From: Patescibacteria group bacterium
GTDB lineage: Bacteria > Patescibacteriota > Patescibacteriia > SG8-24
Direction: 5' to 3'
Length of the DNA stretch: 64,000 nucleotides
Assembly: GCA_041667185.1 (NCBI GenBank)
Contig: JBAYFM010000006.1
Coordinates: 6,591-70,590, forward strand
Made by a program: the position numbers and the translations under genes. The notes under the pieces are model-generated. The model did no database searches, was not told the origin of the DNA, and saw only the letters and a program-made list of their open reading frames with translations. Below, one piece after another: positions 1,085 to 49,770 of this stretch (its first letter is position 1; every line of letters begins with the position of its first letter).

Positions 1085-1228
1085 CTCCCTGATCCAATGA
1101 ACGGGAGAGTGCGGGAGTGCAGGAGTCGGGGAGACCCGACAAAAACTCCTACACTCCGCCACGTCGTTCGCGAACGACGTGACTCCGTCTCTTCGTCTCT
1201 CCCTGACTCCGTCTCTCCTAAACTTCCC
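1085..1228. repeat. dispersed composite palindromic repeat element (copy R2)
   Basis: Contains gggagagtgcgggagtgcaggagtc, the palindrome core at 1161-1180, and gactccgtctct...ctctccctgactccgtctctcc. Confidence 0.75.
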
Positions 1229-1234
1229 AACTTT

Positions 1235-1780
1235 CTAAATCTTCTTCACTTGCAAGAAATCCAACTCCACCGGCGTCTCGCGGCCGAACATGGAGACGAG
1301 CACCTTGATTTTGCCGCGCGACTCGTCGATCTCGGCCACCTTGCCTTCGAAGCCCTTGAACGGGCCGTCGGTGATCTTGACCGGAGCGTTGACATCAATG
1401 TTGATCTTGTATTCCGGCTCGTTGACGCCCATCCGTTTCTGGATGGTCTTGATCTCCTCCTCGGAGATCGGAGTCGGCGTGTTGCCCGTGCCGATGAAGC
1501 CGGTCACGTTCGGCGTGTTGCGGACGACATACCAGGAGTCGTCGGTGACGATCATCTCGACCATGACGTAGCCGGGGAAAATCTTCTCCTCGACGATCTT
1601 GCGCTTGCCGTTCTTGATCTTGATCTTTTTTTCCTTGGGGATCAGGACGCCGAAGATCTTGTCCTGCATGTCCATGGACTCGATGCGCTGCTTGAGATTG
1701 TGGGCGACGTTCTCCTCGTAACCGGAGTAGGTGTGGATGGCGAACCAGCGTCGTCCGAGTTGTGATGTCTGTTTCGGCAT
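1235..1780 (-). CDS. nusG: transcription termination/antitermination factor NusG
   Basis: 181 aa with an NGN domain plus C-terminal KOW (GPFKGFEGKVAEID...KIKVLVSMFGRETPVELDF). It lies immediately downstream of secE, the classic pairing. Confidence 0.9.
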   Translation of the reverse strand: MPKQTSQLGRRWFAIHTYSGYEENVAHNLKQRIESMDMQDKIFGVLIPKEKKIKIKNGKRKIVEEKIFPGYVMVEMIVTDDSWYVVRNTPNVTGFIGTGNTPTPISEEEIKTIQKRMGVNEPEYKINIDVNAPVKITDGPFKGFEGKVAEIDESRGKIKVLVSMFGRETPVELDFLQVKKI

Positions 1781-1834
1781 AGGGGCCGAGAGGCAATTGG
1801 CAGCTGCCAGCTAGCGCCGGCCGCGCCCAAAGGA

Positions 1835-2023
1835 CTAAATGTTAAGAACGCGGCGGAAGATGATGACCAGGGCGTAATCGATGACGCCGAAAAACACGGC
1901 GGTCGACAGGGAAATGCCGATGACGACCAAGGTGTCCTTGACGACGTGGCTGCGAGTCGGCCAGGTGACCTTCGTGAGCTCGGCCCGCGATTCCTTTATA
2001 TAAGCGATGAGAGGATTGGCCAT
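1835..2023 (-). CDS. secE: preprotein translocase subunit SecE
   Basis: 62 aa with a single C-terminal TM helix (WPTRSHVVKDTLVVIGISLSTAVFFGVIDYAL), directly upstream of nusG. Confidence 0.85.
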   Translation of the reverse strand: MANPLIAYIKESRAELTKVTWPTRSHVVKDTLVVIGISLSTAVFFGVIDYALVIIFRRVLNI

Positions 2024-2224
2024 AGTGAGCCAAATTTCAGGTTCTTAAAACCGCCCCGGGGGCGGTATATAGATTGATATGCCGACTATAGCGCAGAAAC
2101 TGCGGGTTGGCAAGTGGGACGCTGTTTTGCCGGCCAGCGCCGACTTCAGCCCGGCCACAAGCCCAGTTGCGCTGTTTGCGCCCAGGGTGTTAAGTAGGGG
2201 CGGACCCAGACAAAGGAGAGTCCT

Positions 2225-2941
2225 ATGTATGGGGAGAACCTTTTACTTCGACTCATCCCGCTGTGGATACTCGCCGCGGTCGTGTCGATCGCGGTCATGC
2301 TGCTGCTCCGTCGCTTTCGCGGCGGCCGCGGCCTCAGAACCGCGACCGTCGTCATCTGGTCGCTCGCGGCGGCTGGCTACGGCGGCACGATCCTGGCCGA
2401 TCGCACCGGTATTTCCGCTTTGCCCGTCACGATCATCATTTCTGATTCTTGGTCCGAGGTCGAGAGGATCGAGATCATCGCGGCCGCGGATTATTGGAAC
2501 GGACTGGTCCTGGAGATGACCGGCCGTCCGGCTTTCATCCTGCGGCGCGGCGCCGCCGGTTATCAGCCGGATCGTTTCTATCTGGCCCCGGTCTTCGGAT
2601 CCAAGCCGTGCGATGGTTTGAACGTGGTCGCTCCGGATGACTCCGATCCGGCCAGTTCCGGCGAGGGCGTGGATGGCATAGGACGTTTCATCGCCTGCGG
2701 CTGGCATTGGCCGGGCGGCGACGTCATCGTTTGGCGCCGCCAGGTCTGGTTCGGTGATGAGTTGGATCATTGCGATCTGAACCGGATCGTTCGCCACGAA
2801 CTCGGCCATATGCTGGGGCTGTCTCACTATGGCGAGGAGGGTCGTTCGACCATGGCGTCGGTCGTTCGTTGCGGTACGGATGAAGCGGCTCTGCGCCGCT
2901 ATGACCGCGTCCTGCTGGAACAGCTCTTTTACGGCCGCTGA
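2225..2941 (+). CDS. membrane-anchored zinc metalloprotease, matrixin/metzincin-like (HExxHxxGxxH)
   Basis: N-terminal TM helix, an HELGHMLGLSH zinc-binding motif and a downstream Met-turn-like STM. Confidence 0.65.
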   Translation: MYGENLLLRLIPLWILAAVVSIAVMLLLRRFRGGRGLRTATVVIWSLAAAGYGGTILADRTGISALPVTIIISDSWSEVERIEIIAAADYWNGLVLEMTGRPAFILRRGAAGYQPDRFYLAPVFGSKPCDGLNVVAPDDSDPASSGEGVDGIGRFIACGWHWPGGDVIVWRRQVWFGDELDHCDLNRIVRHELGHMLGLSHYGEEGRSTMASVVRCGTDEAALRRYDRVLLEQLFYGR

Positions 2942-2946
2942 ATCTT

Positions 2947-2980
2947 AAGACCGCACTCTTTGGAGGGCGGTCTTTTTTTG
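2947..2980 (+). terminator. rho-independent terminator
   Basis: agaccgc-actctttggagg-gcggtct hairpin followed by T7. Confidence 0.6.
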
Positions 2981-3033
2981 TTTCGCGGTCGGACGGCTCG
3001 GTCGCCGGAGCGGTCGCTTCTTAATACCGAAGA

Positions 3034-4107: not shown

Positions 4108-4191
4108 AGGTCAGCGCGTCTCATCTAATACTATCAGGGAATTGCGCGCAATACTAAACCGCCCCTTGCGGGGCGGTTTTTCGGCTGTCAG

Positions 4192-4881: not shown

Positions 4882-5015
4882 AGTTTATGGGCGCTTGATT
4901 AGCGTTAATTTAATAAGGCGCTTAATAGCATAATATATGACGCCGTTCGTGGCAAAATCTTACAGGTTCAAAAAGACGCCGGCTGGAGCCCGGCGCCTTT
5001 TTATCGTGTGATTCG

Positions 5016-7668
<2,653 letters not shown>

Positions 7669-7789
7669 GGCATCCTCCTGTTGGTTTTGCGGCGTTGAAC
7701 CGCTGGAACTCGAGCTGAGCTATTATATAAAGAACCGGTATCCGCACCTTGCCCGCCGCAGCCGCCTTTGTCAAACGCCGGCTGCACCT

Positions 7790-17299: not shown

Positions 17300-17570
17300 C
17301 CCATTGCTTCACCGCTCCAAATACTCCAGCACTCTCAAACTCCCTGACTCCGTCTCTCCCTGACTCCAGTACTCCAGAACTCCAGCACTCTCCCAATTGT
17401 TAGTGACCTCGGTGTCAGACACCGAGGAGATGGAGAGTGCGGAAGTGGAGGAGTGGGGGAGACACGATAAAACTTCAGCCCTCCAGCACTCCCTGACTCC
17501 GTCTCTCCCGCACTCCCGCACTCCGCCACGTCGTTCGCGAACGACGTGGCTCCCGCACTCTCCCAAGTTG
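17300..17570. repeat. dispersed composite palindromic repeat element (longest copy, R3)
   Basis: Multiple ctccagcactc / gactccgtctctccctgactcc units, an internal hairpin cctcggtgtcagacaccgagg, and the core palindrome at 17528-17547. Confidence 0.75.
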
Positions 17571-25027: not shown

Positions 25028-25166
25028 CCGCTGACAACCGGATCAATCAACCGCCTCCCGCGCCAGCAGGGGGCGGTTTTAGCTTAATTAAGGCTAATCT
25101 TGATCTTCGGTGGTCGGGAGCTTCATTTTTGGCTCTCTTACTTGTATAATTTCTACCACGCCCATT

Positions 25167-26738: not shown

Positions 26739-26747
26739 CGCAATTTT

Positions 26748-28334
26748 ATGCCCGAAGGCGTACCGAAACCGGTCCTGCTGCTGGTGCTCGATGGTTGGGG
26801 CGTGGCCCCGGCCGGCGAAGGCAATCCCGTTGAGGCCGCCGAGACCCCGGTCTTCGACGACTTGGTCCGTACTTATCCGACCGCGACCGTGCGCGCTTCC
26901 GGCGAAGCCGTCGGTTTGTCTTGGGGCGAGATGGGCAACTCCGAGGTCGGCCATCTGACGATCGGCGCGGGCAAGATCTTCTACCAGTCGCTGCCGCGCA
27001 TCAACATGCAGATCCAGACCGGGGCGTTCTTCGAGAACGACGTCCTGATCAAGGCTGCCGAACACGCCAAGAAGAACAATTCAGCGTTCCATATCATGGG
27101 CATCCTGAGTCCGGGCAACGTCCACGGTTCGGACGAGCACATCTATGCGCTGCTCGAATTCGCCAAGCGTCAGGGACTCACCAAGGTCTTCGTGCACGCG
27201 TTCATGGACGGTCGTGATTCCATCTTCAACATGGGCATCGAGTTCATGCGCGCACTGCAGAAGAAGATGACCGAGCTCGGCGTCGGGCGCGTCGCCTCGA
27301 TGGGCGGCCGTTACTGGGGCATGGACCGCGATAACCGCTGGGACCGGGTCGAGAAAGCCTACAATGCCATCGTCGGCAAGGACGGCGTCGCCAAAAAATA
27401 CGAAGATCCGATCAAGGCCATCGAGGAATCTTACGCCGCCAAGGTCTACGACGAAGAGATCGAGCCGGCCATCTTCACCGAGGGTGGCCAGCCGGTCGGT
27501 CCCGTCAAAGACGGCGACGCTCTGGTCTTCGCGAATTATCGTCCGGACCGTTCGCGCCAGATCGCGCAGGCGTTCTGCATCCCGTCGTTCGCCAAGTTCC
27601 AGCGCGACTACCTGCCCAACCTGTATTTCGCCACGATGATGGAATACGAGAAGGGGACGCCGGCCAAGATCATGTATCCGCCGGAGAACATCGACACCTG
27701 TCTCGCCAAGATCGTCTCGGAAGCCGGCTTGAAGCAGCTGCATATCGCCGAGACGGAAAAATACGCGCACGTCACGTTCTTCATGAACGGCATGCGCGAG
27801 GAGCCGTATCCGGGCGAGGATCGCGTGATCATCCCGTCGCCGCGCGTCTCGTCCTATGATCAGGCACCGGCCATGTCCACGCCAAAGATCGCCGAGCGCA
27901 TCGTCAAGGAATTTGAGGAGAAGAAATACGACCTGATCGTCTGTAATTTCGCGAACGCCGACATGGTCGGGCACACTGGTAAGTTCGAAGCCACCAAACA
28001 GGGCTGCGAGGTCATCGATCAGTGCTTGGGGACGATCGTGAACGCGGCGCTGCAGCACGGCGGCGCGATCGTGATCACGGCCGACCACGGCAACGGCGAG
28101 GAGGTCATCAACCTGCAGACCGGCGAGCTCGACAAAGAGCACAGCACCAATCCCGTGCCGTTCATCGTCGTCGCCGAGAGTTTCCGCGGCCAGGCGTCGC
28201 CGTCGGGCGAGGTGATCGGCGGCGATCTTTCGATCATGCCGCCGGTCGGCATGTTGGCCGATGCGGCGCCGACGGTCCTGAAACTGCTGGGCGTGCCGCA
28301 ACCGAAGGAATTGACCGGCTCGCCGCTCATTTAG
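26748..28334 (+). CDS. gpmI: 2,3-bisphosphoglycerate-independent phosphoglycerate mutase (tandem paralog, copy 2)
   Basis: VLDGWG, GNSEVGHLTIGAGK, ADHGNGE. Same architecture as copy 1, ~40% identity. Confidence 0.88.
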   Translation: MPEGVPKPVLLLVLDGWGVAPAGEGNPVEAAETPVFDDLVRTYPTATVRASGEAVGLSWGEMGNSEVGHLTIGAGKIFYQSLPRINMQIQTGAFFENDVLIKAAEHAKKNNSAFHIMGILSPGNVHGSDEHIYALLEFAKRQGLTKVFVHAFMDGRDSIFNMGIEFMRALQKKMTELGVGRVASMGGRYWGMDRDNRWDRVEKAYNAIVGKDGVAKKYEDPIKAIEESYAAKVYDEEIEPAIFTEGGQPVGPVKDGDALVFANYRPDRSRQIAQAFCIPSFAKFQRDYLPNLYFATMMEYEKGTPAKIMYPPENIDTCLAKIVSEAGLKQLHIAETEKYAHVTFFMNGMREEPYPGEDRVIIPSPRVSSYDQAPAMSTPKIAERIVKEFEEKKYDLIVCNFANADMVGHTGKFEATKQGCEVIDQCLGTIVNAALQHGGAIVITADHGNGEEVINLQTGELDKEHSTNPVPFIVVAESFRGQASPSGEVIGGDLSIMPPVGMLADAAPTVLKLLGVPQPKELTGSPLI

Positions 28335-28418
28335 AGTTGGGGAGTCAGGGAGAGGCGAAGCGGGGGAGATCGAGTCTCTCCCTGACCCCGTCTCTCCCTG
28401 ACTCCGTCTCTCGCATTT
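28335..28418. repeat. dispersed repeat element (copy R4)
   Basis: ggggagtcagggagag...ctctccctgaccccgtctctccctgactccgtctctc. Confidence 0.7.
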
Positions 28419-32091: not shown

Positions 32092-33828
32092 ATGGGTTCA
32101 ACTTCGCGAAGATCATTCGGCCTGATCATCCTGATCGCCAGTTTCGTTATCGCCGGTTTCGCAGTCGTGGTCCGGCCGGCTGTGGCGCAAACCGTCGAGG
32201 AGATCAGTTCGTTCGCGTCCGACATCGAGGTCCGGAGCGACGGGATCGTCGGGATCGTCGAGACTATCGAATATTATTTTCCCGACGAGCGCCACGGCAT
32301 CTATCGCGACATCGCGGAGGAATACGTCAACGACCGGGGCGAGCAATACCGCATTCCGATCACGGTCCTGAGCGTCCGCGATGAGCGCGGCAACGACTGG
32401 AACTATTCCCTCGAACGCGGCGGGAGCGGCTTGCGCGTCAAGATCGGCGATCCGAACCGGACCGTCACCGGCCGCCAGGTCTACGTCATCGCTTACGAGG
32501 CGACCGGTGCGCTCCGATATTTTGCGGACCATGACGAACTCTATTGGAACGCCACGGGGACCGAGTGGCAGGTCCCGATCCGCCGCGCCGCCGCGACCAT
32601 CAGGCTGCCCGAACCGATCGATCCGGCAACGATCACACTCAAGTGTTACACCGGCGGGCGCGGCTCGGCCGCCGAGAATTGCCAGAAGAGCGTCCAGGGC
32701 CGGCAGGCTGATTTTGCGGCGACCGGCGCGCTGACCGTGGTGGTCGGCTGGCCGCCGGGACTCATCGCGAAGGTCGAGGCAGCGGCGGCGCCGGCGGTGT
32801 CCTGGCCCGGCGTGCCGTGGCGCTGGATCCTGTCAGCGCTGCTCCCGTCGCTCGTCATCCCGTTGGGCGTCTTCATTTATCTGTTCGGACGCTGGCGGCG
32901 GTACGGCCGCGATCTCCAAGGCAGTCCGACGCTCGTGGTCCAATATGATCCGCCGGACAAACTGGGAGCGGCCGAGACCGGCGTCATCTACGACGCCACG
33001 GCCGACATCCGGGAGGTCTCGGCGGCCATCGTGGAACTGGCGGTCCGCGGTTTCCTGCTGATCCGCGAGGTCGAGACTCAGGGGCTGATCTTCAAGAGCC
33101 AGGATCACGAGCTCGTGAAGCTCGCGGCTCCGACTGGCGCCGCGCCGTTGGCCGAACATGAGAGCAAACTGCTCGCCGCGCTGTTCCCGGCCGGCGACAC
33201 GGTCCGGCTTTCCTACATCAAAGAGCACCATGCTTTCTCGGGCCAGCTGAAGGGCATCACCGATTCGATGTATGACCGGGTCACGACGCTCGGATATTTC
33301 GAACAGAATCCGGAGCGGGTGCGCGCCAAGTATTTCGGCGCCGGCGTGGCGTTCATGCTGGTCGGATTCTTCATTGCACCGCTCGCGATCGCGGCGGTCC
33401 TCGCCGGCATCATTTGTCTGGTCTTCGGCGCCATCATGCCCAAGCGCACGGCCCGGGGCGTCCAGGCGTTCGATCACGCCAAGGGTTTCCGGGAATATCT
33501 GGAGCACGCGGAAAAATATCGCCTGCAGTGGCAGGAGCGGGAAAATATCTTCGAGAAGTTCCTGCCTTACGCCATGGTCTTCGGGATCGTCGATAAATGG
33601 GCCAAGGCGTTCGAGGGACTCCAGTTGCAGCAGCCGTCCTGGTACGAGGGCCGGGCGTTCGGTTCCGGAGCCTTCAATGCCGTCATGTTCAGTTCGGCTT
33701 TCAACAGTTTCGGGACCGCGATGAATTCGGCTGTGCTCTCGACGCCGTCCCGGAGTTCGAGCGGCAGCGGTTTTTCGGGCGGCTTTTCCGGCGGCGGCGG
33801 AGGCGGTGGCGGCGGGGGATCGTGGTAG
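32092..33828 (+). CDS. DUF2207-family membrane protein
   Basis: Signal peptide or TM, a ~230-aa extracytoplasmic domain, a central TM, PTLVVQYDPP, C-terminal TMs and a poly-Gly tail (GGFSGGGGGGGGGG). Confidence 0.6.
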   Translation: MGSTSRRSFGLIILIASFVIAGFAVVVRPAVAQTVEEISSFASDIEVRSDGIVGIVETIEYYFPDERHGIYRDIAEEYVNDRGEQYRIPITVLSVRDERGNDWNYSLERGGSGLRVKIGDPNRTVTGRQVYVIAYEATGALRYFADHDELYWNATGTEWQVPIRRAAATIRLPEPIDPATITLKCYTGGRGSAAENCQKSVQGRQADFAATGALTVVVGWPPGLIAKVEAAAAPAVSWPGVPWRWILSALLPSLVIPLGVFIYLFGRWRRYGRDLQGSPTLVVQYDPPDKLGAAETGVIYDATADIREVSAAIVELAVRGFLLIREVETQGLIFKSQDHELVKLAAPTGAAPLAEHESKLLAALFPAGDTVRLSYIKEHHAFSGQLKGITDSMYDRVTTLGYFEQNPERVRAKYFGAGVAFMLVGFFIAPLAIAAVLAGIICLVFGAIMPKRTARGVQAFDHAKGFREYLEHAEKYRLQWQERENIFEKFLPYAMVFGIVDKWAKAFEGLQLQQPSWYEGRAFGSGAFNAVMFSSAFNSFGTAMNSAVLSTPSRSSSGSGFSGGFSGGGGGGGGGGSW

Positions 33829-33858
33829 GCCGTTTGATCTCATAACTCCTGAATTCCT

Positions 33859-34260
33859 ATGACCGACGCACAACTCAAGAAGATCTTCGCCATCAAGACC
33901 ATCGCCGCGGTCGGCTTGTCGTCGAACGCCGCGCGGCCGAGTTACGGCGTCTGCTCGTATCTGCAGGGCCGCGGTTATCGGATCATCCCGGTGAATCCCA
34001 ACGAGACCGAAGTTCTGGGGGAGAAAGCCTATCCGGACCTGGACGCCGTGCCGGGGCCGGTCGAGATCGTTCAGATCTTCCGCCGGCCGGAAGCCGTGCC
34101 GGAGATCGTCGAAGCCGCCATCCGCAAAGGCGCCCAGGTCGTTTGGATGCAGGACGGAGCCGGAAATCCGGACGCGGCGCGCCGCGCCGAAGCGGCTGGC
34201 CTGCTGGTCGTGGCGGATGATTGCATGTTGCGCCAGCACCGGAGGTTGTTCGGTGAGTAG
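33859..34260 (+). CDS. CoA-binding domain protein (YccU/YneT-like)
   Basis: 133 aa; IAAVGLSSNAARPSYGVCSYLQGRGYRIIPVNP Rossmann-like CoA-binding fold. Confidence 0.7.
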   Translation: MTDAQLKKIFAIKTIAAVGLSSNAARPSYGVCSYLQGRGYRIIPVNPNETEVLGEKAYPDLDAVPGPVEIVQIFRRPEAVPEIVEAAIRKGAQVVWMQDGAGNPDAARRAEAAGLLVVADDCMLRQHRRLFGE

Positions 34261-34261
34261 G

Positions 34262-34390
34262 GTAGCGGAGAGTGGGGGAGACGAAGTGTTGAAGTACTGG
34301 AGTACTGAAGTACGGAAGCTTAACCTCAAACCTCCAGCACTCCCGCACTTCAGCACTTCAGTACTCCTGCATTTCCTCACCCCCCCCATC
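34262..34390. repeat. dispersed repeat element (copy R5)
   Basis: ggagagtggggg...cctccagcactcccgcacttcagcacttcagtactcc, followed by the cassette terminator/leader. Confidence 0.65.
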
Positions 34391-34435
34391 TTCATCAAAA
34401 AACCGCCTCGTAGGCGGTTTTTTGACCATTATTCC

Positions 34436-34506
34436 AGTCTTTGTTAAGGTGCTTTCCGCAGCCGCTGGTTGCCGTGTTCTTTCACTAACATCATCGGAGG
34501 TAGAGA
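34436..34506 (+). promoter_or_regulatory. conserved cassette leader (TTGTTAAGGTG box + GC hairpin + GGAGGTAGAGA RBS), copy 1
   Basis: Near-identical to 35198-35264 and 36766-36841, and partially to 36000-36073. Confidence 0.5.
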
Positions 34507-34974
34507 ATGAATCCGAAGACGATCGTGGTCTCTCTTTTCGCCTTGTTTCTTTTGGCAGGGTGCGCCAAGTTTCGCTTCGATGTTCCGGACGGCTTCAAGA
34601 TCATCGAAGAGCAGAGGGATAATTTTGGCCAGGGCAAGTGGCAGCTCACGAACGAGGCGGGCAATAGCATGATTTTTGTCAACCTAATGTCAGCCGAGGT
34701 TTGGCCGCTGGATAAGCAAGTGGACGAGTACCTATCTCTCATCGCTGATCTGGATGGTGTGATCACCGAGAAAGTGATCACGGATTACAGAAGTTCCGCG
34801 AGGCTGGAGTTCACGTACGTCGCGCAACAGTCTCACAGGACTGGTCGGGTCTTCTTTCGTCAGTTGACTGAAAGAAATATGACCATCGTCGTTTTTGGTT
34901 GGTGGTTGGATTCCCAGGCTGCGACCGCCGGACCAGCCTTCGAAGCCGTCGCCGCTTCGGCCGACTATAAGTAA
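34507..34974 (+). CDS. paralogous small lipoprotein, cassette 1
   Basis: Lipobox LLAGC; 155 aa; C-terminal FEAVAASADYK shared with cassettes 2-4. Confidence 0.65.
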   Translation: MNPKTIVVSLFALFLLAGCAKFRFDVPDGFKIIEEQRDNFGQGKWQLTNEAGNSMIFVNLMSAEVWPLDKQVDEYLSLIADLDGVITEKVITDYRSSARLEFTYVAQQSHRTGRVFFRQLTERNMTIVVFGWWLDSQAATAGPAFEAVAASADYK

Positions 34975-35007
34975 CGGGTTCTTCATCAGCTCCGATTTTC
35001 TTCAGCT

Positions 35008-35038
35008 CGCCGCGCTCTCTCAAGGGCGCGGTTTTTTT
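35008..35038 (+). terminator. rho-independent terminator of cassette 1
   Basis: ccgcgctctctcaagggcgcgg plus T7. Homologous terminators follow cassettes 2-4. Confidence 0.6.
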
Positions 35039-35099
35039 CGCAACTATCAGAAAACCTCGGCGTCAGCCGAGGTTGAATAAAAGACGCGAATCCCCCGCA

Positions 35100-35150
35100 G
35101 TTTTAGCGGAGAGGGATCAGAACTCCCACACTCCCACACTCTCCGTCTTC
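35100..35150. repeat. dispersed repeat fragment (copy R6)
   Basis: agcggagagggatcagaactcccacactcccacactctccgtcttc. Confidence 0.5.
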
Positions 35151-35264
35151 ATCAAAAAACCGCCCCGTAGGCGGTTTTTTGACCATTACTTCAGCCTTTG
35201 TTAAGGTGCTTCCCGCAGCTGCAAGCTGCCGCGTTCTTTCATCAATATCATCTGGAGGTGGGGA

Positions 35265-35741
35265 ATGAATTTGAAAACGATCATCGTATCCGTATTCGCG
35301 CTGTGTCTTTTTGCAGGCTGCGCCGCTCCGCAGGCGCATCTGATCGTGCCGGACGGCTGGCAGGCCACCTCGATACACGATCTCGAGTCCGGCTTCAGCC
35401 AGACGTTGGCAAACGAGGGTGAGCAGGCCTACATCTTCGTCAAAATAGCCCCGGATAAAACTTATCCGCGCGTTAAGGAACAGCTGGACTCGGATCTCCG
35501 TTACATCAAAAGTGTTGGCGGCAAGCTGATCGAGTCCCTGGTTGTTGCCGATCAGAGCTTCGCGCGGCTGGCCTTCACGATCGAATTGGCAGATGGCACT
35601 CTGGGCATCGGCAGGATCATCTTGCGCAAGTCGACCAAGGGCAAGCGGACGGTTGCTGTCAGGGGTGTTTGGCCGCTGGATAAGGATGCGGTCATCAGGC
35701 CGGACTTCGAAGCCATTGCCGCTTCAGTCGACTACAAGTAG
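35265..35741 (+). CDS. paralogous small lipoprotein, cassette 2
   Basis: Lipobox LFAGC; 158 aa; C-terminal FEAIAASVDYK. Confidence 0.65.
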   Translation: MNLKTIIVSVFALCLFAGCAAPQAHLIVPDGWQATSIHDLESGFSQTLANEGEQAYIFVKIAPDKTYPRVKEQLDSDLRYIKSVGGKLIESLVVADQSFARLAFTIELADGTLGIGRIILRKSTKGKRTVAVRGVWPLDKDAVIRPDFEAIAASVDYK

Positions 35742-35799
35742 CAGGTTCGCCACCAGCTCCGATTCTCTTCAGTTCACCGCGCTCTCTCATGAGCGCGGT

Positions 35800-35990
35800 T
35801 TTTTTCGCCATTTTGAGGTGAAGAGACGGAGTCAGGGAGAGACGGAGTTGGGGAGATACGAAGATACGGAGTCACGTCGTTCGCGAACGACGTGACGGAG
35901 CCATATCGCTCACAAGCGACGCGACTCCGTCTCTCTGTTACTTCCTGACTCCGTCTCTCCCGCACTCCTGCACTCCCATACTTTCCACTA
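35800..35990. repeat. dispersed composite palindromic repeat element (copy R7)
   Basis: gagacggagtcagggagagacggag ... core palindrome 35874-35893 ... gactccgtctct ... cctgactccgtctctcc. Confidence 0.75.
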
Positions 35991-36073
35991 TTTCGGCCGC
36001 GTGTTAAGGTGGCGGCAGTCGATCGGATGTTCGTCGCACCTTTTTAACAACGCCGCTTCAGAGGAGGTTCAGG

Positions 36074-36568
36074 ATGAAGATCTCGCTGCTAGCGATCCTG
36101 GGTCTGGCCCAGTTGTTTTCTGCTGTCGATTGTTCGCCAGCCGGCGAGCCGAGACTCTGGTCCGAGTCGCCTCAGGGCTGGAAAGTCACGGCCGAACTGG
36201 TCCGCAGCGGTCGGGCGATGTTGGTCCTGAATCCGGAAAAGGCCGGTCTCGAGGCCGGATTCGGCGTGATCTGCGCGCCGGCCGGCAAGATGCCGCCTGA
36301 AGTCAGGTTCCGGTCGCTGGCGAGACAGGCCCGGGAAATGGCCGGCGCCGTGGACATCGAGGCGTACGACGCGGCCAAAAAGTTCTTTGTCCTGTCTTAC
36401 GCCTACGAGTCGGTTTCCGGCGAGGCTTACGTCGCTCGCGTCACCGTGAAGACGGATTCCTCAGGACTCGGCCAGACTCTGGTCATCTCCGGTTATTGGC
36501 CGGAGGCGGTCGATCCGGACCTGGCCCGCGTTTACGCCGACTTCGTCGCCTCGATCGATTTCAAATGA
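36074..36568 (+). CDS. paralogous small secreted protein or lipoprotein, cassette 3 (most diverged)
   Basis: Signal peptide with AVDCS; 164 aa; C-terminal ADFVASIDFK. Confidence 0.55.
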   Translation: MKISLLAILGLAQLFSAVDCSPAGEPRLWSESPQGWKVTAELVRSGRAMLVLNPEKAGLEAGFGVICAPAGKMPPEVRFRSLARQAREMAGAVDIEAYDAAKKFFVLSYAYESVSGEAYVARVTVKTDSSGLGQTLVISGYWPEAVDPDLARVYADFVASIDFK

Positions 36569-36614
36569 GTCCGTTCTGACCTGCTCCCGCGTCTCCTAGA
36601 GGCGCGGTTTTTTT

Positions 36615-36760
36615 CACCACTTTGAGGTGAAGAGACAGAGTCAGGGAGTGATGGAGAGACGGAGAGATGTCGCTCGCGAACGACACGGCCTCGTCTCTCC
36701 CTGACTCCGTCTCTCCTGCACTCCAGTACTCCCGCACTCTCCACCCACCCATCGTTTTGA
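36615..36760. repeat. dispersed repeat element with a degenerate core (copy R8)
   Basis: gagacagagtcagggag...ATGTCGCTCGCGAACGACAC...ctctccctgactccgtctctcctgcactccagtactcc. Confidence 0.7.
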
Positions 36761-36841
36761 CCATTCCCCCGGCCTTTGTTAAGGTGCTCTCCGCAGCCGC
36801 GGGCTGCAGTGTCCTTTCACCCAGATCATCGGAGGTAGAGA

Positions 36842-37312
36842 ATGAGCCTGAAAACGATCGTCGCGTCCGTCTTCGCGCTGTTCCTGTTGGCGGGGTGTGC
36901 GCCCAAGTTCCAAGTCACCGTGCCTGAAGGCTGGAAAGTGGCTAAGGAATTGAACGAAGAGGGCGTGCAAGCGAAACTCCTTGTCAACGCAAAGGAGGAT
37001 ATCGCGATCAAGGTCTTCTGCGTGCCGGCCGAACAAGTGCCGGTCGAGGAAGCTCTGAAGTCGACGGTCGACCTTGTGAACCAGGCTCAGGGCCAGATCG
37101 TCGAACAGGACCTCGCCGCTGACAAGAGCTCGTCCCGGGTCGTTTTTACGGTTACGGTTGATGGCACTGATCTTGCCGGCCGTCAGGTGTTCAAGCTGAG
37201 CAGCTATAAGCACGCCAAGGCGTTGCTTATCTCCAGTGTTTGGTTGGCCGCGCAAGATGCCGAGGCTGCCAAGGCTTTTGAGATCATCGCCGCTTCAGCT
37301 GACTTCAAGTAG
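36842..37312 (+). CDS. paralogous small lipoprotein, cassette 4
   Basis: Lipobox LLAGC; 156 aa; C-terminal FEIIAASADFK. Confidence 0.65.
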   Translation: MSLKTIVASVFALFLLAGCAPKFQVTVPEGWKVAKELNEEGVQAKLLVNAKEDIAIKVFCVPAEQVPVEEALKSTVDLVNQAQGQIVEQDLAADKSSSRVVFTVTVDGTDLAGRQVFKLSSYKHAKALLISSVWLAAQDAEAAKAFEIIAASADFK

Positions 37313-37494
37313 CCGCCCAGCGTCAGTTTCGTTTCCGATTCTCTCAGTTTGCCGCGTCTCGTCAGACGCGGTCTTTTTTATCCATTTATCCACAAAAGGT
37401 GTCAGGTACTTTTGGGGTGCCAAAGGTACCAGGTACCTTTTGCCCGGAAATCGGCGGTGCGGTACACTAGCCGGGCATTCATTAATATTTCGTT

Positions 37495-37944
37495 GTGACC
37501 ATGGATGAACTCGCCCGACAACTGGATCGTCCCGGGGACAACGCGCATTGTCCCGGCGTTTTCGTGCTGCGTGGCGGCCAAGTGCTCGTCGGTCTGCGGC
37601 ACTATGCCAAGCACGGCATCGCCGCGACCGATCTCTGGACCATCCCCGGCGGCCGCTGCGAAACCGGGGAGACCATCGGCCAGGCGGTCCGGCGCGAAGC
37701 GGCCGAGGAAGCCGGCCTGACCGAACTCGAGCTCACCGACTGGTTGGCCGAGATACCCGGCGCCCGGGCCGGCGACATCGTCCCGCTCTTCATCGGCCGT
37801 TCGTCCCAGCCGCCGCGCCTCATGGAGCCGGAGAAGTTCGCCGAGTGGCGCTGGTGCGATCCCGCCGCCGTGCCGCGGCCGTTCATCAATCCCGAAGCCC
37901 TGATCCTGCTCCAGGCGTGGGTCCGGTCGCATCCCCAAAACTGA
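37495..37944 (+). CDS. Nudix hydrolase
   Basis: Nudix box GGRCETGETIGQAVRREAAEEAGL. Confidence 0.8.
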   Translation: MTMDELARQLDRPGDNAHCPGVFVLRGGQVLVGLRHYAKHGIAATDLWTIPGGRCETGETIGQAVRREAAEEAGLTELELTDWLAEIPGARAGDIVPLFIGRSSQPPRLMEPEKFAEWRWCDPAAVPRPFINPEALILLQAWVRSHPQN

Positions 37945-37949
37945 CCGTT

Positions 37950-40079
37950 ATGCCGCACATCGATTTCGAAAAGGAACTGAACGCTGAACAGCTCGCGGTC
38001 GTGAAGAACGCCGACGGGCCGTGTTTGGTCTTGGCCGGCGCCGGCTCCGGCAAGACGCGGACCATCGTCTATCGCGTGGCCTATCTCGTGGAGCACGGCG
38101 TGGATCCGTCGAGCATCCTCCTGCTCACTTTCACCAACAAGGCCGCCAACGAGATGATGACCCGCATCGGCGAACTCCTCGGGCTCGCGGGCGACGCGCG
38201 GCCGGTCGGTCTCTGGGGCGGCACGTTCCATTCGGTCGCGAACCGGCTGCTCCGCATCTACGGCCGCCAGATCGGCTACGGCCAGAATTTCACCATCCTC
38301 GACGAAGAGGACGCTAAGGCGCTCATCAAGGCTTGTATCAAGGAGCTGAACCTCGACGCCGCCGGCCGCCGTTTTCTGTCGCCGGCCGGGGTCAAGGAGA
38401 TCCTGAGCTACGCGCGCAACTCGACCAAAGGCCTGGAGAAAGCGGTCGAACGGCACGATGCGCGGCTCGTTTCGGACCTCTCCAAGTTCACGGACATCGC
38501 CGCGCTCTACGAAAAGAAGAAACGCGCCGCGAACGCTATGGACTTCGACGACCTGCTCATCCGGCTCTACGAACTTTTGAAACAGGAACCGCGCCTGGCC
38601 GAACTTTTGTCCCAGCAGTTCCGTTACATCCTCGTCGATGAGTATCAGGACACGAATGCGCTCCAGGTGGCGTTCATCAAAGAGCTCGCGGGGCCGAAAC
38701 ACAATCTGCTTGTCGTCGGCGACGACGCCCAGAGCATCTATTCTTTCCGCGCGGCCGACGTGCGGAACATCCTGGATTTCCCGCAGCAGTTCCCGGACGC
38801 CAAGGTCTTCCGGCTGCAGACGAATTACCGCTCGACGCCGGAGATCCTCAGCCTCGCGAACGACATCATCGCCAAGAACGTCAATCAGTTCCCGAAAGAA
38901 TTGACGAGCGTGTCGAAAGGCCTGGAGAAACCAGCGGTCGTGCCGGCAGTCTCCGCTTCGAAGGAGGCGCAGTTCGTGTTCAATAAGATCGAACAACTGC
39001 TCGAATCCGGCGTGCCGGCGCGTGAGATCGCCGTGCTCTTCCGCGCCACGCACCATTCGCAGATGCTGGAGTTCGAACTCATGAAAGCCGCTCTGCCTTA
39101 CGACTACCGCGGCGGCCTGAAATTCTTCGACCGCGCGCACGTGAAGGACACGCTGGCGTTCCTGCGTCTCACGGTCAATTTCAGCGACGAGGCCGCCTGG
39201 CTCAGGGTGCTGGGACTTCAGGAGGGCATCGGCGATGTCTCGGCTGGCAAGATCTTCGAGGCTCTGCGCGCCGCCGGCAGTCTCGCCAAGTCCATTCTCG
39301 CGCCCATCGAGCAGCAGTTCGGCAATCGCGTGGCCCGCGGCTGGAAGGATCTGCGCGACATCCTGGAGGCGCTGCACGCGGCGGGCGGCAAGCCGGCCGA
39401 CCTCATCAAGGCTGTGACGACCTCGACCTACATCGATTATCTTGAAGCCGAATATCCGAATTACCGCGAGCGGCTGGAGGATCTGGACCAGCTCGCCGTG
39501 TTCAGCCGGAATTACGAGAAGGTCGAGGATTTTCTCGCGGACGTCACCTTGGACGACGGCGTCTTCGGCGGCGCGCGCGAACTCAAAGCCGGCGGCGGCC
39601 GGCGCGCCCCGTCGCGCGGCGACCGCATTGTGCTGTCGACCATCCATCAGGCCAAGGGGCTCGAATGGGACGCGGTGTTCATCATCCACCTGAACGACCA
39701 GTCGTTCCCGAACCGCAAGGCCGCGGCTGAACAGGGTGGTCTCGAAGAAGAGCGGCGCTTGTTCTACGTCGCCGTGACGCGGGCGCGCAAGTGGCTGTTC
39801 CTGAGTTATCCCGCGGCTATGGGCGGGCGCGAGGGCGGTTTCGATTACGCGCCGCCGTCGCTGTTCCTCGAAGAGATCGACGTTGCTTGCCTGAAGGACG
39901 GCGCCTGTCTCGCGGGCCGTCGCACCGGCAGCCGCTCGGGTGGCGACGATTGGTCCGATCCGGGATTCGACGATGAGTCGGTCGAAGTTGATCAGACGGG
40001 GGAACTGAAGGAAGTGGGGGAGCGGATGAAGAGCGTGAATGACGACTGGAAGAAAAAAAGCTTTTTAAGGGATGTTTGA
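37950..40079 (+). CDS. ATP-dependent DNA helicase, UvrD/PcrA/Rep family
   Basis: Walker A AGAGSGKTRT, motifs Ia/II (VDEYQDTN), VGDDAQSIYSFRAA, TIHQAKGLEWD. The start was trimmed to MPHIDFEKEL. Confidence 0.88.
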   Translation: MPHIDFEKELNAEQLAVVKNADGPCLVLAGAGSGKTRTIVYRVAYLVEHGVDPSSILLLTFTNKAANEMMTRIGELLGLAGDARPVGLWGGTFHSVANRLLRIYGRQIGYGQNFTILDEEDAKALIKACIKELNLDAAGRRFLSPAGVKEILSYARNSTKGLEKAVERHDARLVSDLSKFTDIAALYEKKKRAANAMDFDDLLIRLYELLKQEPRLAELLSQQFRYILVDEYQDTNALQVAFIKELAGPKHNLLVVGDDAQSIYSFRAADVRNILDFPQQFPDAKVFRLQTNYRSTPEILSLANDIIAKNVNQFPKELTSVSKGLEKPAVVPAVSASKEAQFVFNKIEQLLESGVPAREIAVLFRATHHSQMLEFELMKAALPYDYRGGLKFFDRAHVKDTLAFLRLTVNFSDEAAWLRVLGLQEGIGDVSAGKIFEALRAAGSLAKSILAPIEQQFGNRVARGWKDLRDILEALHAAGGKPADLIKAVTTSTYIDYLEAEYPNYRERLEDLDQLAVFSRNYEKVEDFLADVTLDDGVFGGARELKAGGGRRAPSRGDRIVLSTIHQAKGLEWDAVFIIHLNDQSFPNRKAAAEQGGLEEERRLFYVAVTRARKWLFLSYPAAMGGREGGFDYAPPSLFLEEIDVACLKDGACLAGRRTGSRSGGDDWSDPGFDDESVEVDQTGELKEVGERMKSVNDDWKKKSFLRDV

Positions 40080-43548: not shown

Positions 43549-43654
43549 AAGCTCGAGATCAATGATCGTATTATAGCAAGAGTCTGGTGATCAATGCCGC
43601 CGGGCGCGAGCGATGAAAAAACCGTCCGTTCGGCCGGGCGGTCGGCGCTAGCCG

Positions 43655-44518: not shown

Positions 44519-44524
44519 AATTTT

Positions 44525-44640
44525 TCCTTCAATTCTTTACTCTCCCAAACTCTGTCACGCCGTTCGAGAGCGACATATCTCCGTCTCTCCCGCACTCCTG
44601 CACTCCAGCACTCCGTCACTTCTTAATCCAATCTTATTTT
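44525..44640. repeat. dispersed repeat element (copy R9, degenerate core ACGCCGTTCGAGAGCGACAT)
   Basis: ...atctccgtctctcccgcactcctgcactccagcactccgtcac... Confidence 0.65.
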
Positions 44641-44792
44641 CAGGCTTTTATCGGAGGTCTGTCAAGCGGATCCGGTGCAAGCCTGTCGTCGGGCGTTCGG
44701 CGGATTTGGCAAATTGACCTTTGAACCGGAAACAAGTAGTTTGATGGCGTCATCTGCCAGAGCAGCAGCGTATCACAGAATGGAGGTCAGTC

Positions 44793-45197: not shown

Positions 45198-45239
45198 ACA
45201 GCTTCGTTTTTTCGATCTTCGGACGGCCTTGGGCCGTCT

Positions 45240-45345
45240 TTTTTTAGAAGTGACGGAGTCAGGAAGTGTAGGAGAGACGGAGTCGTTGAGAGATTCTCCC
45301 GAACTCCGTCTCTCCCTGACTTCGTCTCTCACAAAAAACCCCGCA
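45240..45345. repeat. dispersed repeat element (copy R10)
   Basis: gacggagtcaggaagtgtaggagagacggagtc...gaactccgtctctccctgacttcgtctctc: inverted arms. Confidence 0.7.
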
Positions 45346-45378
45346 GCGGAATGCTGCGGGGCGTAGAGTCGAAAGAAC

Positions 45379-47556: not shown

Positions 47557-47761
47557 GTCGTGCCTCCTTTGGGGTTTGGTTGTCAAAGTACTGCTGGCGC
47601 CGGATGCGCCGCCTCGCGGCCTTCGCGAGGTTCATAGCACCTTAGAAAGAAGGCGAGGTTTTGTCAATCGGATTTTTAGGCCGGGGCATCTTGCCAAAAA
47701 GCCGAAAATAGTGTATGGTCTCATGAACTGATTTTTCGTTGATCAGGCCAAATTTGAGGCT

Positions 47762-48799
47762 ATGAAGACCGTCGAATCGGTAACTGAAGGGCATCCGGAT
47801 AAAGTCTGCGACCAGATCGCTGACGCTATTTTGGATGCGTACCTGACACGCGACCCCGCGAGTCGCGTGGCGGTGGAGGTTTTGGGCACCCACGGGGCGC
47901 TCATCATCGGCGGCGAGGTCACTTCGCGCGCGACCGTCGATCCGGGCCAGATCGCGTCCAAGGTCTACAAGGAGATCGGCTACGACGACGATCTCGAGGT
48001 TTTCGTGAACATTGATGAGCAGTCGCCGGACATCGCCAAGGGCGTGGACGGCGGCGGCGCCGGCGACCAGGGGATCATGTATGGCTACGCCACGGCCGAG
48101 ACCAAAGAATATCTGCCGCCGCCGGTGGTACTCGCACAACGCCTGGCTTGGGGGCTCACGGATCTCCGCAAGAACAATCCGGATTTTTCCTGGCTGCGTC
48201 CGGACGGCAAGACCCAGGTGACGATCGATCAGGGTCGGCCGGTGGCGATCGTCGTGTCCGCGCAGCACGCCGAAGAGATCGATGCCGCCGCGATGCGGCA
48301 GCTGCTGCTCAAGAACCTTATTGCGCCGCTCGTTGATGACGCGCGGCGCACGAGCGTTTACATCAACGCCACGGGTTCCTTCGTGCGCGGCGGTTTCGCC
48401 GCTGACACCGGACTCACCGGGCGCAAGATTATGGTCGACACTTACGGCGGCCTCATCCCGCACGGCGGGGGAGCGTTCTCCGGCAAGGATCCGACGAAGG
48501 TTGACCGGTCGGCCGCCTACATGGCGCGCTTCGCCGCGAAGAACGTCGTGGCGAACGGCGTCGCCAAGAGCTGCCTGATCTCGGTAGCCTACGTCATCGG
48601 CAAGGAAGAGCCGCTCATGCTGCGGGCCGTCTCCGGCGATGGACGCGATCTCAGCGGCTACGTCAACCAGCATTTTGATTTCCGGCCGCGCGCCATCATT
48701 GAACGGCTGAATCTGCGCCGGCCGATCTATCGCCCCACGGCCGCTTACGGGCACTTCGGCCGCGACGAATTCCCCTGGGAACACATCGTCCTCGACTGA
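47762..48799 (+). CDS. metK: S-adenosylmethionine synthetase (short form)
   Basis: GHPDKVCDQIADAILD and GGGAFSGKDPTKVDRSAAY; 345 aa, ~40 aa shorter than typical bacterial MetK. Confidence 0.88.
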   Translation: MKTVESVTEGHPDKVCDQIADAILDAYLTRDPASRVAVEVLGTHGALIIGGEVTSRATVDPGQIASKVYKEIGYDDDLEVFVNIDEQSPDIAKGVDGGGAGDQGIMYGYATAETKEYLPPPVVLAQRLAWGLTDLRKNNPDFSWLRPDGKTQVTIDQGRPVAIVVSAQHAEEIDAAAMRQLLLKNLIAPLVDDARRTSVYINATGSFVRGGFAADTGLTGRKIMVDTYGGLIPHGGGAFSGKDPTKVDRSAAYMARFAAKNVVANGVAKSCLISVAYVIGKEEPLMLRAVSGDGRDLSGYVNQHFDFRPRAIIERLNLRRPIYRPTAAYGHFGRDEFPWEHIVLD

Positions 48800-48950
48800 T
48801 CAGCGCCTCGAATATCAGAACGTCGCCTCCGCGGGCGGCGTTTTGAACTTGACCGGGAATTGCCGGCGGCCCATACTGTGGACTGCCGAAGCCTCCGGGC
48901 TCATTCGGCGATCGCACTTTTGATCATTTCAGGAAGACTAGGAGGTCAAC

Positions 48951-49613
48951 ATGAACTGGCTAACATTGGCCACCGCTGTCTGTTTCGTCTTATCGGTCGG
49001 TTACGCTCTCGGTCGGTTGGCGACTCGCGCCGCCAGCCGTCGCCAACTCGAACGGATCTTCGTCGATCATTATCGGACCTGGTGCCATCTGCTCGGACGT
49101 CTGCATCCGGAGCCGGTCCCGCTGGGTTGGAATTGCCGGGTGGTCCAGGCTTTGCGCAAAGAGGTCGGGGCCAGACTCGATATGACGCTGAAGATGATCC
49201 AGTTCGGCCGGCAGCATTTCCAGGTCGATCGCGAGATCTCGGAGCGGCTGGAGAGATCGTCGGCCAGGAATCTCGAGGCCGCGTCCGCCCTGCTCGACTA
49301 TGGCGAGGGACAGGTCTTGCCGCTGCTTGGCCGCGTCCGCGATTGCGCCTCGTTGCTGCATGGCGAGGTCGAGATGTTGATCAAACTTGCCTCCGGACGT
49401 TACGACCGGCTCGCCGCGCGCGGTTGCCAGGTCGAAGCGGAACGACAAAGGATCACTATGATCCGCAATGCCAGCGCCGCCAGCCGGCTTCAGATCGCCG
49501 GCGCTCCGGTCACCACCATGAAACTGCTGCGGGTCCAGCTAAGGGTCATCCATGATCTGCTGCTCACCGCCGACGTCCTTGAAACCATGCTCCCGCCCGC
49601 AGGAGGGAAGTGA
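48951..49613 (+). CDS. hypothetical membrane-anchored protein
   Basis: N-terminal TM then an Arg/Leu-rich helical region; 220 aa. Confidence 0.45.
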   Translation: MNWLTLATAVCFVLSVGYALGRLATRAASRRQLERIFVDHYRTWCHLLGRLHPEPVPLGWNCRVVQALRKEVGARLDMTLKMIQFGRQHFQVDREISERLERSSARNLEAASALLDYGEGQVLPLLGRVRDCASLLHGEVEMLIKLASGRYDRLAARGCQVEAERQRITMIRNASAASRLQIAGAPVTTMKLLRVQLRVIHDLLLTADVLETMLPPAGGK

Positions 49614-49639
49614 GGCTCAGAGGCTTTCCAGACGGCTCA

Positions 49640-49770
49640 TTCGTTGGGCTGTCTTTTTTTTGTGGATGTGGAGAGTGGGGTGGGAGTGCTGGAGTGCTGG
49701 AGTGCTGGAGTGCTGGAGTGCTGGAGTGCTCTCATACTCCGTCTCTCCCACACTTCCAAACTCCCACACC
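49640..49770. repeat. dispersed repeat element (copy R11) containing a (GGAGTGCT)5 octanucleotide microsatellite
   Basis: gtggagagtggggtgggagtgctggagtgctggagtgctggagtgctggagtgctctcatactccgtctctccc. Confidence 0.75.

Follow-up and report, generated by a model that had tools for sequence, protein, structure and literature searches.

Octamer-array hairpins and a perfect palindrome associated with GIY-YIG nuclease genes in the intergenic DNA of Patescibacteria

We analysed a 64-kb stretch of DNA (the window) on contig JBAYFM010000006.1 of a Patescibacteria group bacterium, assembly GCA_041667185.1. Its intergenic spacers carried hairpins with repetitive arms, and several of these contained a perfect 20-bp palindrome, ACGTCGTTCGCGAACGACGT, which is called the core here. 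A first-pass annotation made from the sequence had described a family of hairpin-forming repeats, dispersed over intergenic sites beside terminators. This family was real, and related repeats were present at all 11 loci that had been named. The perfect core had been taken as shared by the copies. It was exact at four of the 11 loci; there were two or three decayed copies in addition, and five elements had no core. We lean slightly towards the view that the finding merges two layers, which are the array hairpins and a widespread, nuclease-associated mobile palindrome that landed in them.

The arms in the window were parsed using a repeat finder and Tandem Repeats Finder (TRF). The arm copies were spaced 8 nt apart, and TRF returned a period of 8. 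The arms, described before as 12- to 14-mers, were tandem octamer arrays of strict 8-nt period, with GGAGNNNN to the left of each centre (5' arm) and NNNNCTCC to the right (3' arm). The parse gave 98 units in 17 arrays at 10 loci, with the consensus CTCCnnCA. The most frequent units were CTCCGTCT (n = 15), CTCCCTGA (11), CTCCAGCA (10), and CTCCCGCA (7). The pattern (GGAGN4)x4 matched 35 times in the window compared to 0 expected in shuffles, and the GGAGAGACGGAGTC-type arm motif occurred 20 times at two mismatches or fewer compared to 0.9 expected, at the loci named by the annotation. As 8 cannot be divided by 3, the arrays were non-coding. The array-hairpin family was truly dispersed within the window, and its members are given below (+, forward strand; cores without strand).
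328-347 (no strand): exact 20-bp core, solitary, without GGAG arm; right flank AGCTCCGCATCTCCGTAT with only about two CTCC units
1098-1160 (+): GGAG octamer arm (1102-1133), then GGGGAGACCCGACAAAAACTCC as the hairpin centre and the first part of the CTCC arm, up to CACTCCGCC
1161-1180 (no strand): exact core within the CTCC arm; ACTCCG-CC before it and G-ACTCCG after it
1181-1230 (+): CTCC octamer array of 6 units
17322-17395 (+): CTCC octamer array of 9 units, one-armed and non-folding
17420-17527 (+): hairpin homologous to 1098-1160, with GGAG arm 17422-17461, the same centre, and a 7-unit CTCC arm ending in CTCCGCC; 40 nt longer (5 octamers)
17528-17547 (no strand): exact core within the CTCC arm; CACTCCGCC before it and GGCTCCCGC after it
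28333-28417 (+): coreless array hairpin that takes up the entire spacer from the second gpmI paralogue to the following gene
34262-34390 (+): coreless array hairpin of GAAG/GGAG and CTTC/CTCC units
35100-35150 (+): rudimentary element with few ACTCCCAC units; its spacer is paralogous to the other element spacers
35816-35873 (+): GGAG octamer arm of 7 units
35874-35893 (no strand): exact core; ACGGAG-TC before it and G-ACGGAG after it; absent from the paralogous spacer 36555-36845
35901-35922 (no strand): older decayed core CATATCGCTCACAAGCGACGCG, homologous to 36664-36690
35923-35980 (+): CTCC octamer arm of 7 units
36625-36745 (+): array hairpin with the decayed core ATGTCGCTCGCGAACGACAC at 36667-36686 (4 mismatches)
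44557-44626 (+): decayed core ACGCCGTTCGAGAGCGACAT (4 mismatches), then a 6-unit CTCC array; one-armed and non-folding
45243-45335 (+): array hairpin between two convergent terminators (45221-45239 on the + strand, 45362-45338 on the - strand)
49668-49772 (+): array hairpin with six perfect GGAGTGCT copies (49683-49730), right behind the terminator 49630-49654

Hairpin folding was compared with that of shuffled sequences. The claim that the elements fold into long hairpins held strongly for six of them (z = -3.3 to -6.5) and weakly for two (z = -2.0 to -2.4), but the one-armed loci 17300-17400 and 44525-44630 showed no folding above shuffles. Canonical terminators with a stem and a T-run were located directly upstream of the elements at 35818, 36627, 45243, and 49668. 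No T-run followed any core copy or array hairpin in the window, so that none of them had the form of an intrinsic terminator. The array hairpins occupied the dead space behind terminators. Rfam 15 gave no match at the gathering score in the whole window. The elements 1098-1228 and 17420-17565 had arm order, centre, and core position in common, and their lengths differed by exactly 40 nt, which is five units. The hairpin centre of the two (elements of the 1161 and 17528 cores) was GGGGAGAC(C/A)CGA(C/T)AAAA. The arrays gained or lost whole units, as the length changes showed, and slippage was the probable cause. The hairpin state might be maintained by selection or by template switching. In addition, a CTCC octamer array was found directly after rplK (L202:13752-13790), approximately 2.7 kb to the left of the window, and thus the CTCC family extended beyond the window.

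The core matched four times in the window at three mismatches or fewer, all of them exact (328, 1161, 17528, and 35874), compared to 0.01 expected. The two to three decayed cores were at 36667 and 44557 (four mismatches each) and near 35901. At least six of the seven window cores touched arrays. The arrangement proposed before, a core flanked by inverted arms, was found only at 35874, where the core was central to the hairpin with arms on both sides. The cores at 1161 and 17528 sat inside the CTCC arm with the hairpin centre elsewhere, and the core at 328 had no GGAG arm. The left flank of the 1161 and 17528 cores was CACTCCGCC, and the right flanks were GACTCCG and GGCTCCCG, respectively. The spacer 35725-36078 contained a fresh perfect core beside a decayed one, and the paralogous spacer 36555-36845 contained the decayed core only. 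This contrast between two related sequences supported a recurrent insertion of the core. Half-cores alone were not enriched in the window (18 compared to 9.9 expected, 8 of the 18 within cores). A DNA uptake sequence was ruled out: such motifs are very dense (about one per kb) and partly arranged as inverted pairs, whereas there were only four exact cores in 64 kb and the half-cores were not enriched.

The exact 20-mer was scanned against species-representative genomes and was found in at least 120 stretches. Among the matches listed, 87 had explicit names of the candidate phyla radiation (CPR), 29 had generic or automated labels, and 4 came from named high-G+C non-CPR taxa, in which the core flanks resembled ordinary high-G+C coding DNA. 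The CPR names in this list were Uhr-, Moran-, Peregrini-/Peri-, Wirth-, Doudna-, Kerfeld-, Buchanan-, Woese-, and Saccharibacteria, Minisyncoccota, and Parcubacteria. The hosts listed had a G+C content of 30-63%, and several of these metagenome-assembled genomes (MAGs) carried at least four cores with different flanks each time. The cores were depleted in sequence covered by open reading frames (ORFs), with 51% inside six-frame ORFs compared to 89% of all bases. A viral origin was rejected, as the core was absent from 2.9 million viral contigs. To judge from its flanks and distribution, the core is present across the Patescibacteria radiation and behaves as an insertion.

The anatomy was read from 125-126 instances among the matches listed. 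The palindrome ran 3 nt further than the core in the form G-x-C, core, G-x'-C, and the complementarity at flank positions 1-3 was 95, 87, and 76% in 125 instances; it was below chance at positions 4-5. Beyond this extension, the flanks were direct repeats of local sequence in a fixed register (left -8 to -1 equal to right +1 to +8). An exact adjacent direct repeat of at least 5 nt was present in 73 of 126 instances, compared to approximately 11 expected from randomly paired flanks. The cleanest 8-bp duplications were GGTCCACC, GACTTATC, and GGCGGGCC. The commonest flank form was a 6-bp repeat with two core-adjacent bases complementing the other side, and its two mirror forms were one form on opposite strands. 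The length of the direct repeat read as 6 to 8 bp with the register fixed, and the 2-3 bases nearest the core were palindromic instead. Nearby core variants were altered on both halves every time (ACGTCGCTCGCGAGCGACGT and ACGTCGGTCGCGACCGACGT, for example), without variants of the G-T type. The design of the palindrome was GNC-ACGNCNNNCG followed directly by CGNNNGNCGT-GNC.

The position of the cores relative to tRNA genes gave a further trend. For 17 of 125 cores, the first base was precisely the final A of a tRNA CCA; the tRNA end was intact, and a copy of it followed the core. Approximately 85% of the scanned cores were away from tRNAs and carried direct repeats of unrelated local sequence. 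The context with CTCCGCC before the core and GGCTCCGCCA after it was among the most frequent elsewhere because tRNA-Ser and tRNA-Asp end in CTCCGCCA. The CTCC arrays of the window supply many near-copies of this putative target.

At several loci, a small ORF within approximately 200 bp of the core encoded a bare GIY-YIG catalytic domain (PF01541, E = 2.9e-12). The proteins of this family were 85 aa long with 60-87% identity across CPR lineages, and the Tyr, Arg, and Glu columns were invariant in the alignment. They consisted of the catalytic domain without a separate DNA-binding domain. A profile of 20 nuclease sequences matched the UPF0213 structures 1zg2 (E = 1.1e-6) and 1ywl (5.5e-5) and SLX1 chains (1.5e-4 to 3e-3); NCBIfam and PADLOC had no model for the nuclease. 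The nuclease thus resembled the SLX1/UPF0213 (YhbQ-like) structure-specific nucleases, and from this homology and the perfect palindrome we infer that it may cleave branched or cruciform DNA.

The association was also examined in the reverse direction, in 80 metagenome loci that were retrieved with the protein alone and in a subset of 61 with at least 300 nt upstream. A core-like palindrome was located within 300 bp of the GIY-YIG gene at 48 of the 80 loci, nearly always upstream and sometimes also 9-35 bp downstream. In the subset, the core was present upstream at three mismatches or fewer at 43 loci, and 13 more had another perfect palindrome, mostly of the same design (for example, GCCACGTCACTCGCGAGTGACGTGGC, GCCCTGTCGTTCGCGAACGACAGGGC, GCCACGTCAGCTTAAGCTGACGTGGC, and GCCACGGCGCTCGCGAGCGCCGTGGC), which gave a total of 56 of 61. 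A same-strand tRNA ended within 500 nt upstream of the gene at 48 of these 61 loci. The palindrome started exactly at A76 in 49 cases, behind eight tRNA species; those named were tRNA-Asp, -Trp, -Gln, and four tRNA-Ser. The layout of the locus was a tRNA ending in xCC, the core beginning with the A, GG with a copy of the tRNA 3' end, and then the ORF, which could be followed by a tRNA 3'-end copy, a core, and GG with another copy. The polarity of the flanks was fixed relative to the ORF in 28 cases. Cores were found on both sides of the cassettes in L145, L177, and L171. Tandem arrays of 28-30-nt units, each a half-core with duplicated flank, were located beside some tRNA/GIY-YIG cores (29-30-nt units in L024 and L059). 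The nuclease gene was thus associated with the palindrome, and the nuclease would be a candidate for its mobilisation. Neither an autonomous element with separated 10-bp ends nor a MITE (miniature inverted-repeat transposable element) partner was found: there were no separated half-core pairs in 877 kb of CPR loci, and the partner ORF was a nuclease domain flanked by whole cores.

Two more observations were made at such loci. Right behind a tRNA, core, and pseudo-tRNA end, L178 (2172-2330), L180, and L181 carried a 28-nt repeat, cagcgaacgaggtcgagttgcctctttc, with the half-core-like CGAACGAGGT; its copy number was 5, 4, and 3 among related strains (L178-L181). At L034:7117-7359, a core was located inside the 3' part of the GIY-YIG ORF in place of the conserved C-terminus, so the palindrome was able to disrupt the nuclease gene too.

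In the literature searched, no paper contained the core sequence or its central 12-mer, and nothing relevant came up on GIY-YIG proteins with CPR, UPF0213, or YhbQ. Together with the empty Rfam search, this agreed with the first-pass annotation, which had not recognised the motif as a described family, and the palindrome-nuclease module is apparently undescribed.

The array hairpins were then compared with other CPR sequences. The (GGAGN4)x4 pattern had no match in 877 kb of other CPR loci, and the cores in other genomes showed no 8-nt periodicity; the arms were therefore not part of the core element. GyrB was identical to that of a MAG at NCBI with the name 'Patescibacteria group bacterium'. 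The next GyrB relatives (approximately 80% identity) included proteins named Uhrbacteria, Parcubacteria, or Patescibacteria group, and the best matches of NusG and of the gyrB DNA were also Uhrbacteria loci. Three relatives with 77-80% GyrB identity had no cores in approximately 20 kb of syntenic sequence, and only one of the three had CTCCG-type arrays. In one of these three, GCA_027346945.1 (approximately 77% GyrB identity), we found a hairpin of GAAGACGC x3 ... CTCCGCCA CTCCGTCA CTCCGCAT and many further hairpins with arms of 7-8-nt units of other sequences. Arrays of period 7 or 8 numbered 0.6-0.8 per 10 kb in CPR loci, 1.9 in the window, and 4.7 in GCA_027346945.1. An inverted-complement partner within 150 nt was present for 40 of 114 such arrays in CPR sequences, compared to 5-6 in two controls. 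This test was based on a window match; an earlier version based on unit rotation was discarded owing to its high background.

Hairpins with array arms, in which the unit differed per genome or locus, were observed at L006, L022, L025, L049, L066, L092, L097, L102, L212, and L215; examples are L022:3088-3195 and L215:2625-2715 and 7218-7430. A perfect intergenic (GA)29 microsatellite followed by TCTTTATC arrays was also observed in GCA_027346945.1 (L215:13735-13792). These comparisons indicate that array-armed hairpins are a common CPR architecture and that the GGAG/CTCC set of the window is a local, homogenised, lineage-specific family. As far as we found, array-armed hairpins appear to be a general, undescribed feature of the intergenic DNA of Patescibacteria. 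We also considered the arrays as stacked target duplications of the core, a reading that agrees with the 8-nt period and with a few loci (L024, L059, and L093/L102). This was rejected because it was not general and five window elements were coreless. The causality may also be the reverse, in that the core inserted early and its flank was then amplified into the arrays.

The explanation that we put forward has several steps. The nuclease gene and the palindrome would be parts of one selfish module, which settles downstream of tRNA genes. The nuclease would recognise the hairpin or cruciform form of the palindrome, and it would disperse copies without the ORF in trans, as RAYTs (REP-associated tyrosine transposases) do with repetitive extragenic palindromes (REPs). 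In the window, the core would have landed repeatedly in the CTCC arrays, whose CTCCGCC(A) units match the CTCCGCCA ends of tRNA-Ser and tRNA-Asp, which are among the recurrent targets elsewhere. We propose only tentatively that the 20-22-bp palindrome is itself the mobile DNA element, and that an 85-aa SLX1-like GIY-YIG nuclease spreads it in trans across the radiation by recognising its cruciform or hairpin form, with the site between CC and A of tRNAs as the preferred target. To our knowledge, no smaller mobile DNA element has been described.

Several points weighed against this explanation. There was no GIY-YIG gene and no tRNA within the window, so the link of the nuclease to this genome was drawn by analogy. 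No clean orthologous pair of an empty and a filled site was found, and two near-identical strains showed no polymorphism at the elements. The direct repeat was imperfect and its boundary ambiguous; it could be read as a 22-nt insert with a 6-bp duplication or as a 20-nt insert with an 8-bp duplication in which 2 nt were converted. We know of no GIY-YIG enzymes that make such duplications. No element with separated half-cores was found in 877 kb of CPR loci. The sequence and identity of the nuclease did not co-vary significantly with the T7/C7 variant of the palindrome, and co-evolution of the two was rejected; this fits recognition by shape and equally fits no interaction. Extra copies of the flanking direct-repeat unit were not general around cores in other genomes, and the origin of the arrays and their inverted pairing were left unexplained by the tests that were run.

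Other explanations were weighed on the same evidence. The palindrome might be a functional signal, namely an RNA hairpin from A76 that terminates tRNA transcripts or directs their 3' processing, possibly cut by the GIY-YIG protein, and that insulates or regulates the nuclease gene; the array hairpins would then be terminators or mRNA stabilisers like REPs. The exact start of 49 palindromes at A76 with the ORF always downstream on the same strand agrees with this, as does the element 28333-28417, which fills an intra-operon spacer. Prokaryotic SLX1-like domains fused to a TrmH tRNA methyltransferase were read as a hint at RNA metabolism (PMC1564403). However, the majority of scanned cores, those away from tRNAs, carried repeats of unrelated local sequence, the palindromes were perfect as DNA without the G-T-type variants that an RNA structure would tolerate, and the cores had no T-tract. 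The window cores lay behind canonical terminators, and the window had no tRNA. We regard such a signal as unlikely. It is also quite unlikely, in our judgement, that the palindromes are not transposed as units but made afresh at break sites. In this reading, an end that carries the 10-nt half-core would form a hairpin or prime fold-back synthesis after a nuclease cut, giving a perfect palindrome with a few templated flank bases, like P-nucleotides, and solitary cores would be scars of cassette insertion and loss. All variants were perfectly palindromic and the palindrome ran 2-3 nt into the variable flank, in agreement with this, and both the half-core tandem arrays beside full cores (29-30-nt units in L024 and L059; 28-nt units in 3-5 copies in L178-L181) and the cassettes with cores on both sides in L145, L177, and L171 are in line with it. 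Solitary cores, however, were far more numerous than cassettes, the central 20 bp were identical across very different flanks and lineages, and no free half-core ends were found beyond those tandem arrays.

The first-pass annotation had favoured a single genome-specific, composite REP- or MITE-like element that serves as a recombination substrate for duplications, with an IS200/IS605-type Y1 transposase or TnpB, encoded at another place in the genome, as the candidate mobiliser. This we consider improbable. The elements 1098-1228 and 17420-17565 at unrelated loci do share their arm order, centre, and core position, and none of the spacers of the duplicated lipoprotein genes or of the 5' duplication was without an element. 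However, the core was not genome-specific, given its spread over at least 120 stretches with 87 CPR-named matches among those listed and over 56 of 61 GIY-YIG metagenome loci, and it was independent of the arms: array hairpins, five of them in the window, occurred coreless, and cores elsewhere occurred without arrays. The hallmarks of REPs were missing (no GTAG, and a target duplication was present). The check for a target-site duplication gave 6-8-bp direct repeats around the core, but no Y1-type partner was found in the window, and the recurrent partner gene elsewhere was GIY-YIG. Nothing was found to show that the repeats drive gene duplications; the versions in paralogous spacers had merely diverged, and these spacers differed in element content, so that the elements changed after duplication. 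An assembly or library artefact, with collapsed or chimeric palindromes, has a negligible chance of being the cause. Other short-read contigs (L208 and L209) ended inside the element at approximately 17358, which is expected at a repeat. However, the MEGAHIT contig ERZ27249449 from the European Nucleotide Archive (ENA) and contigs of 3300037810 from the Joint Genome Institute (JGI) were 100% identical to the window across elements 328/1161 and 34262-36760, so that three independent assemblies agreed, and the core was found in MAGs of many studies and assemblers in a consistent biological context.

The proposed palindrome-nuclease module was compared with known systems. In Proteobacteria, REP/REPIN-RAYT systems consist of imperfect 20-40-bp palindromes with a 5' GTAG, species-specific and without target duplication, and a Y1 HUH transposase. 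The module shares with them short extragenic palindromes that are scattered and often lie after gene ends, a single-copy nuclease-type gene that is itself flanked by palindromes, and a presumed action in trans on hairpin DNA. In contrast, the core and its variants are perfect and start with ACG or CTG, never with GTAG, the same 20-mer spans a superphylum, and the module has a 6-8-bp direct repeat, a target between CC and A of tRNAs, and an 85-aa GIY-YIG partner. The module is functionally most like REP-RAYT, but it lacks every defining REP feature that was tested and is not a member. Like MITEs, the core is non-coding and has inverted ends, many copies, a coding partner from which it would derive, and a putative target-site duplication. 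However, its two ends abut each other, the search for a DDE transposase partner bearing the same ends found none, and every MITE that we know of is several times longer than the 20-24 bp of the core. The filing of the repeats under REPs or MITEs was therefore abandoned, since the core is a perfect palindrome without GTAG, with a target duplication, and with a GIY-YIG partner instead of a Y1 or DDE transposase. In fungal mitochondria, mobile palindromic clusters rich in G+C and ultra-short palindromic elements are found near tRNA genes and gene ends. These resemble the core as very short inserts that multiply in a small genome near tRNA genes, sometimes with small target duplications and tandem arrays. 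They differ in being organellar, of other sequences, and not conserved across phyla, and for most of them we know of no dedicated nuclease. The arms, in turn, resemble the lineage-variable heptamers of cyanobacteria, known as short tandemly repeated repetitive (STRR) sequences, since both are tandem arrays in intergenic DNA whose 7-8-nt units vary from one lineage to another; unlike STRR, the arms form hairpins from inverted pairs, are found in Patescibacteria, and consist of other units.

On the nuclease side, free-standing GIY-YIG homing endonuclease genes (relatives of I-TevI) are small selfish genes at a conserved host site (PMC1564403). The module is similar in that a small gene lies at a conserved host site and the end of the host gene is duplicated with its function kept. 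However, its nuclease is a bare catalytic domain without a DNA-binding domain and is nearest to the SLX1/UPF0213 branch, it lies behind at least eight different tRNA species, and its palindrome partner also occurs alone in many places. In a survey of the superfamily, prokaryotic stand-alone SLX1-like proteins were described as vertically inherited and non-selfish with no role assigned, and one fusion to a tRNA methyltransferase was noted (PMC1564403). A study of CPR rRNA insertions mentioned GIY-YIG proteins, with no palindromes or tRNAs (PMC11270868).

The genes around the elements showed several other features. At the 5' edge, window positions 1-300 and 763-1062 were a tandem duplication, 94% identical, of a 183-aa protein (family unassigned) and its upstream region; the full hairpin with the core was upstream of one copy and the core only upstream of the other. 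Positions 25110-28334 contained two adjacent full-length gpmI paralogues (cofactor-independent phosphoglycerate mutase), which is unusual in a reduced genome. Positions 34507-37312 contained four tandem paralogous genes of approximately 155-164 aa, three of them with lipoprotein-like N-termini (LxxGC); the two that were scanned had no Pfam match, and each gene had a terminator and a diverged copy of the repeat element behind it. A 38-nt stretch (34019-34056) in a CoA-binding-domain gene was absent from the JGI 3300037810 strain, and the reading frame was broken there. This coding-region indel was the sole difference between the window and that strain across 33590-39568, the region of the lipoprotein array. 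Finally, the 602-aa protein encoded at 56839-58647 contained TSP3-like calcium-binding repeats and matched CglD weakly; its gene had internal DNA repeats of 45 nt (56956-57285).

Patescibacteria have tiny genomes that are thought to be poor in mobile DNA. In practical terms, short-read assemblies break at the core and at the array hairpins, and tRNA 3' ends can be misannotated because of them. The array-armed hairpins add a second intergenic feature of Patescibacteria, one still without explanation. If the proposed explanation is true, the conserved palindrome-nuclease module, whose hosts range from Saccharibacteria to Uhrbacteria and from 30 to 63% in G+C, would mark gene flow or a constraint common to the radiation. 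It would also offer a simple system to learn how perfect palindromes arise and are tolerated, add a third enzymatic route of palindrome dispersal beside the Y1 and DDE transposases, and give the prokaryotic stand-alone SLX1/UPF0213-like proteins a first candidate function.

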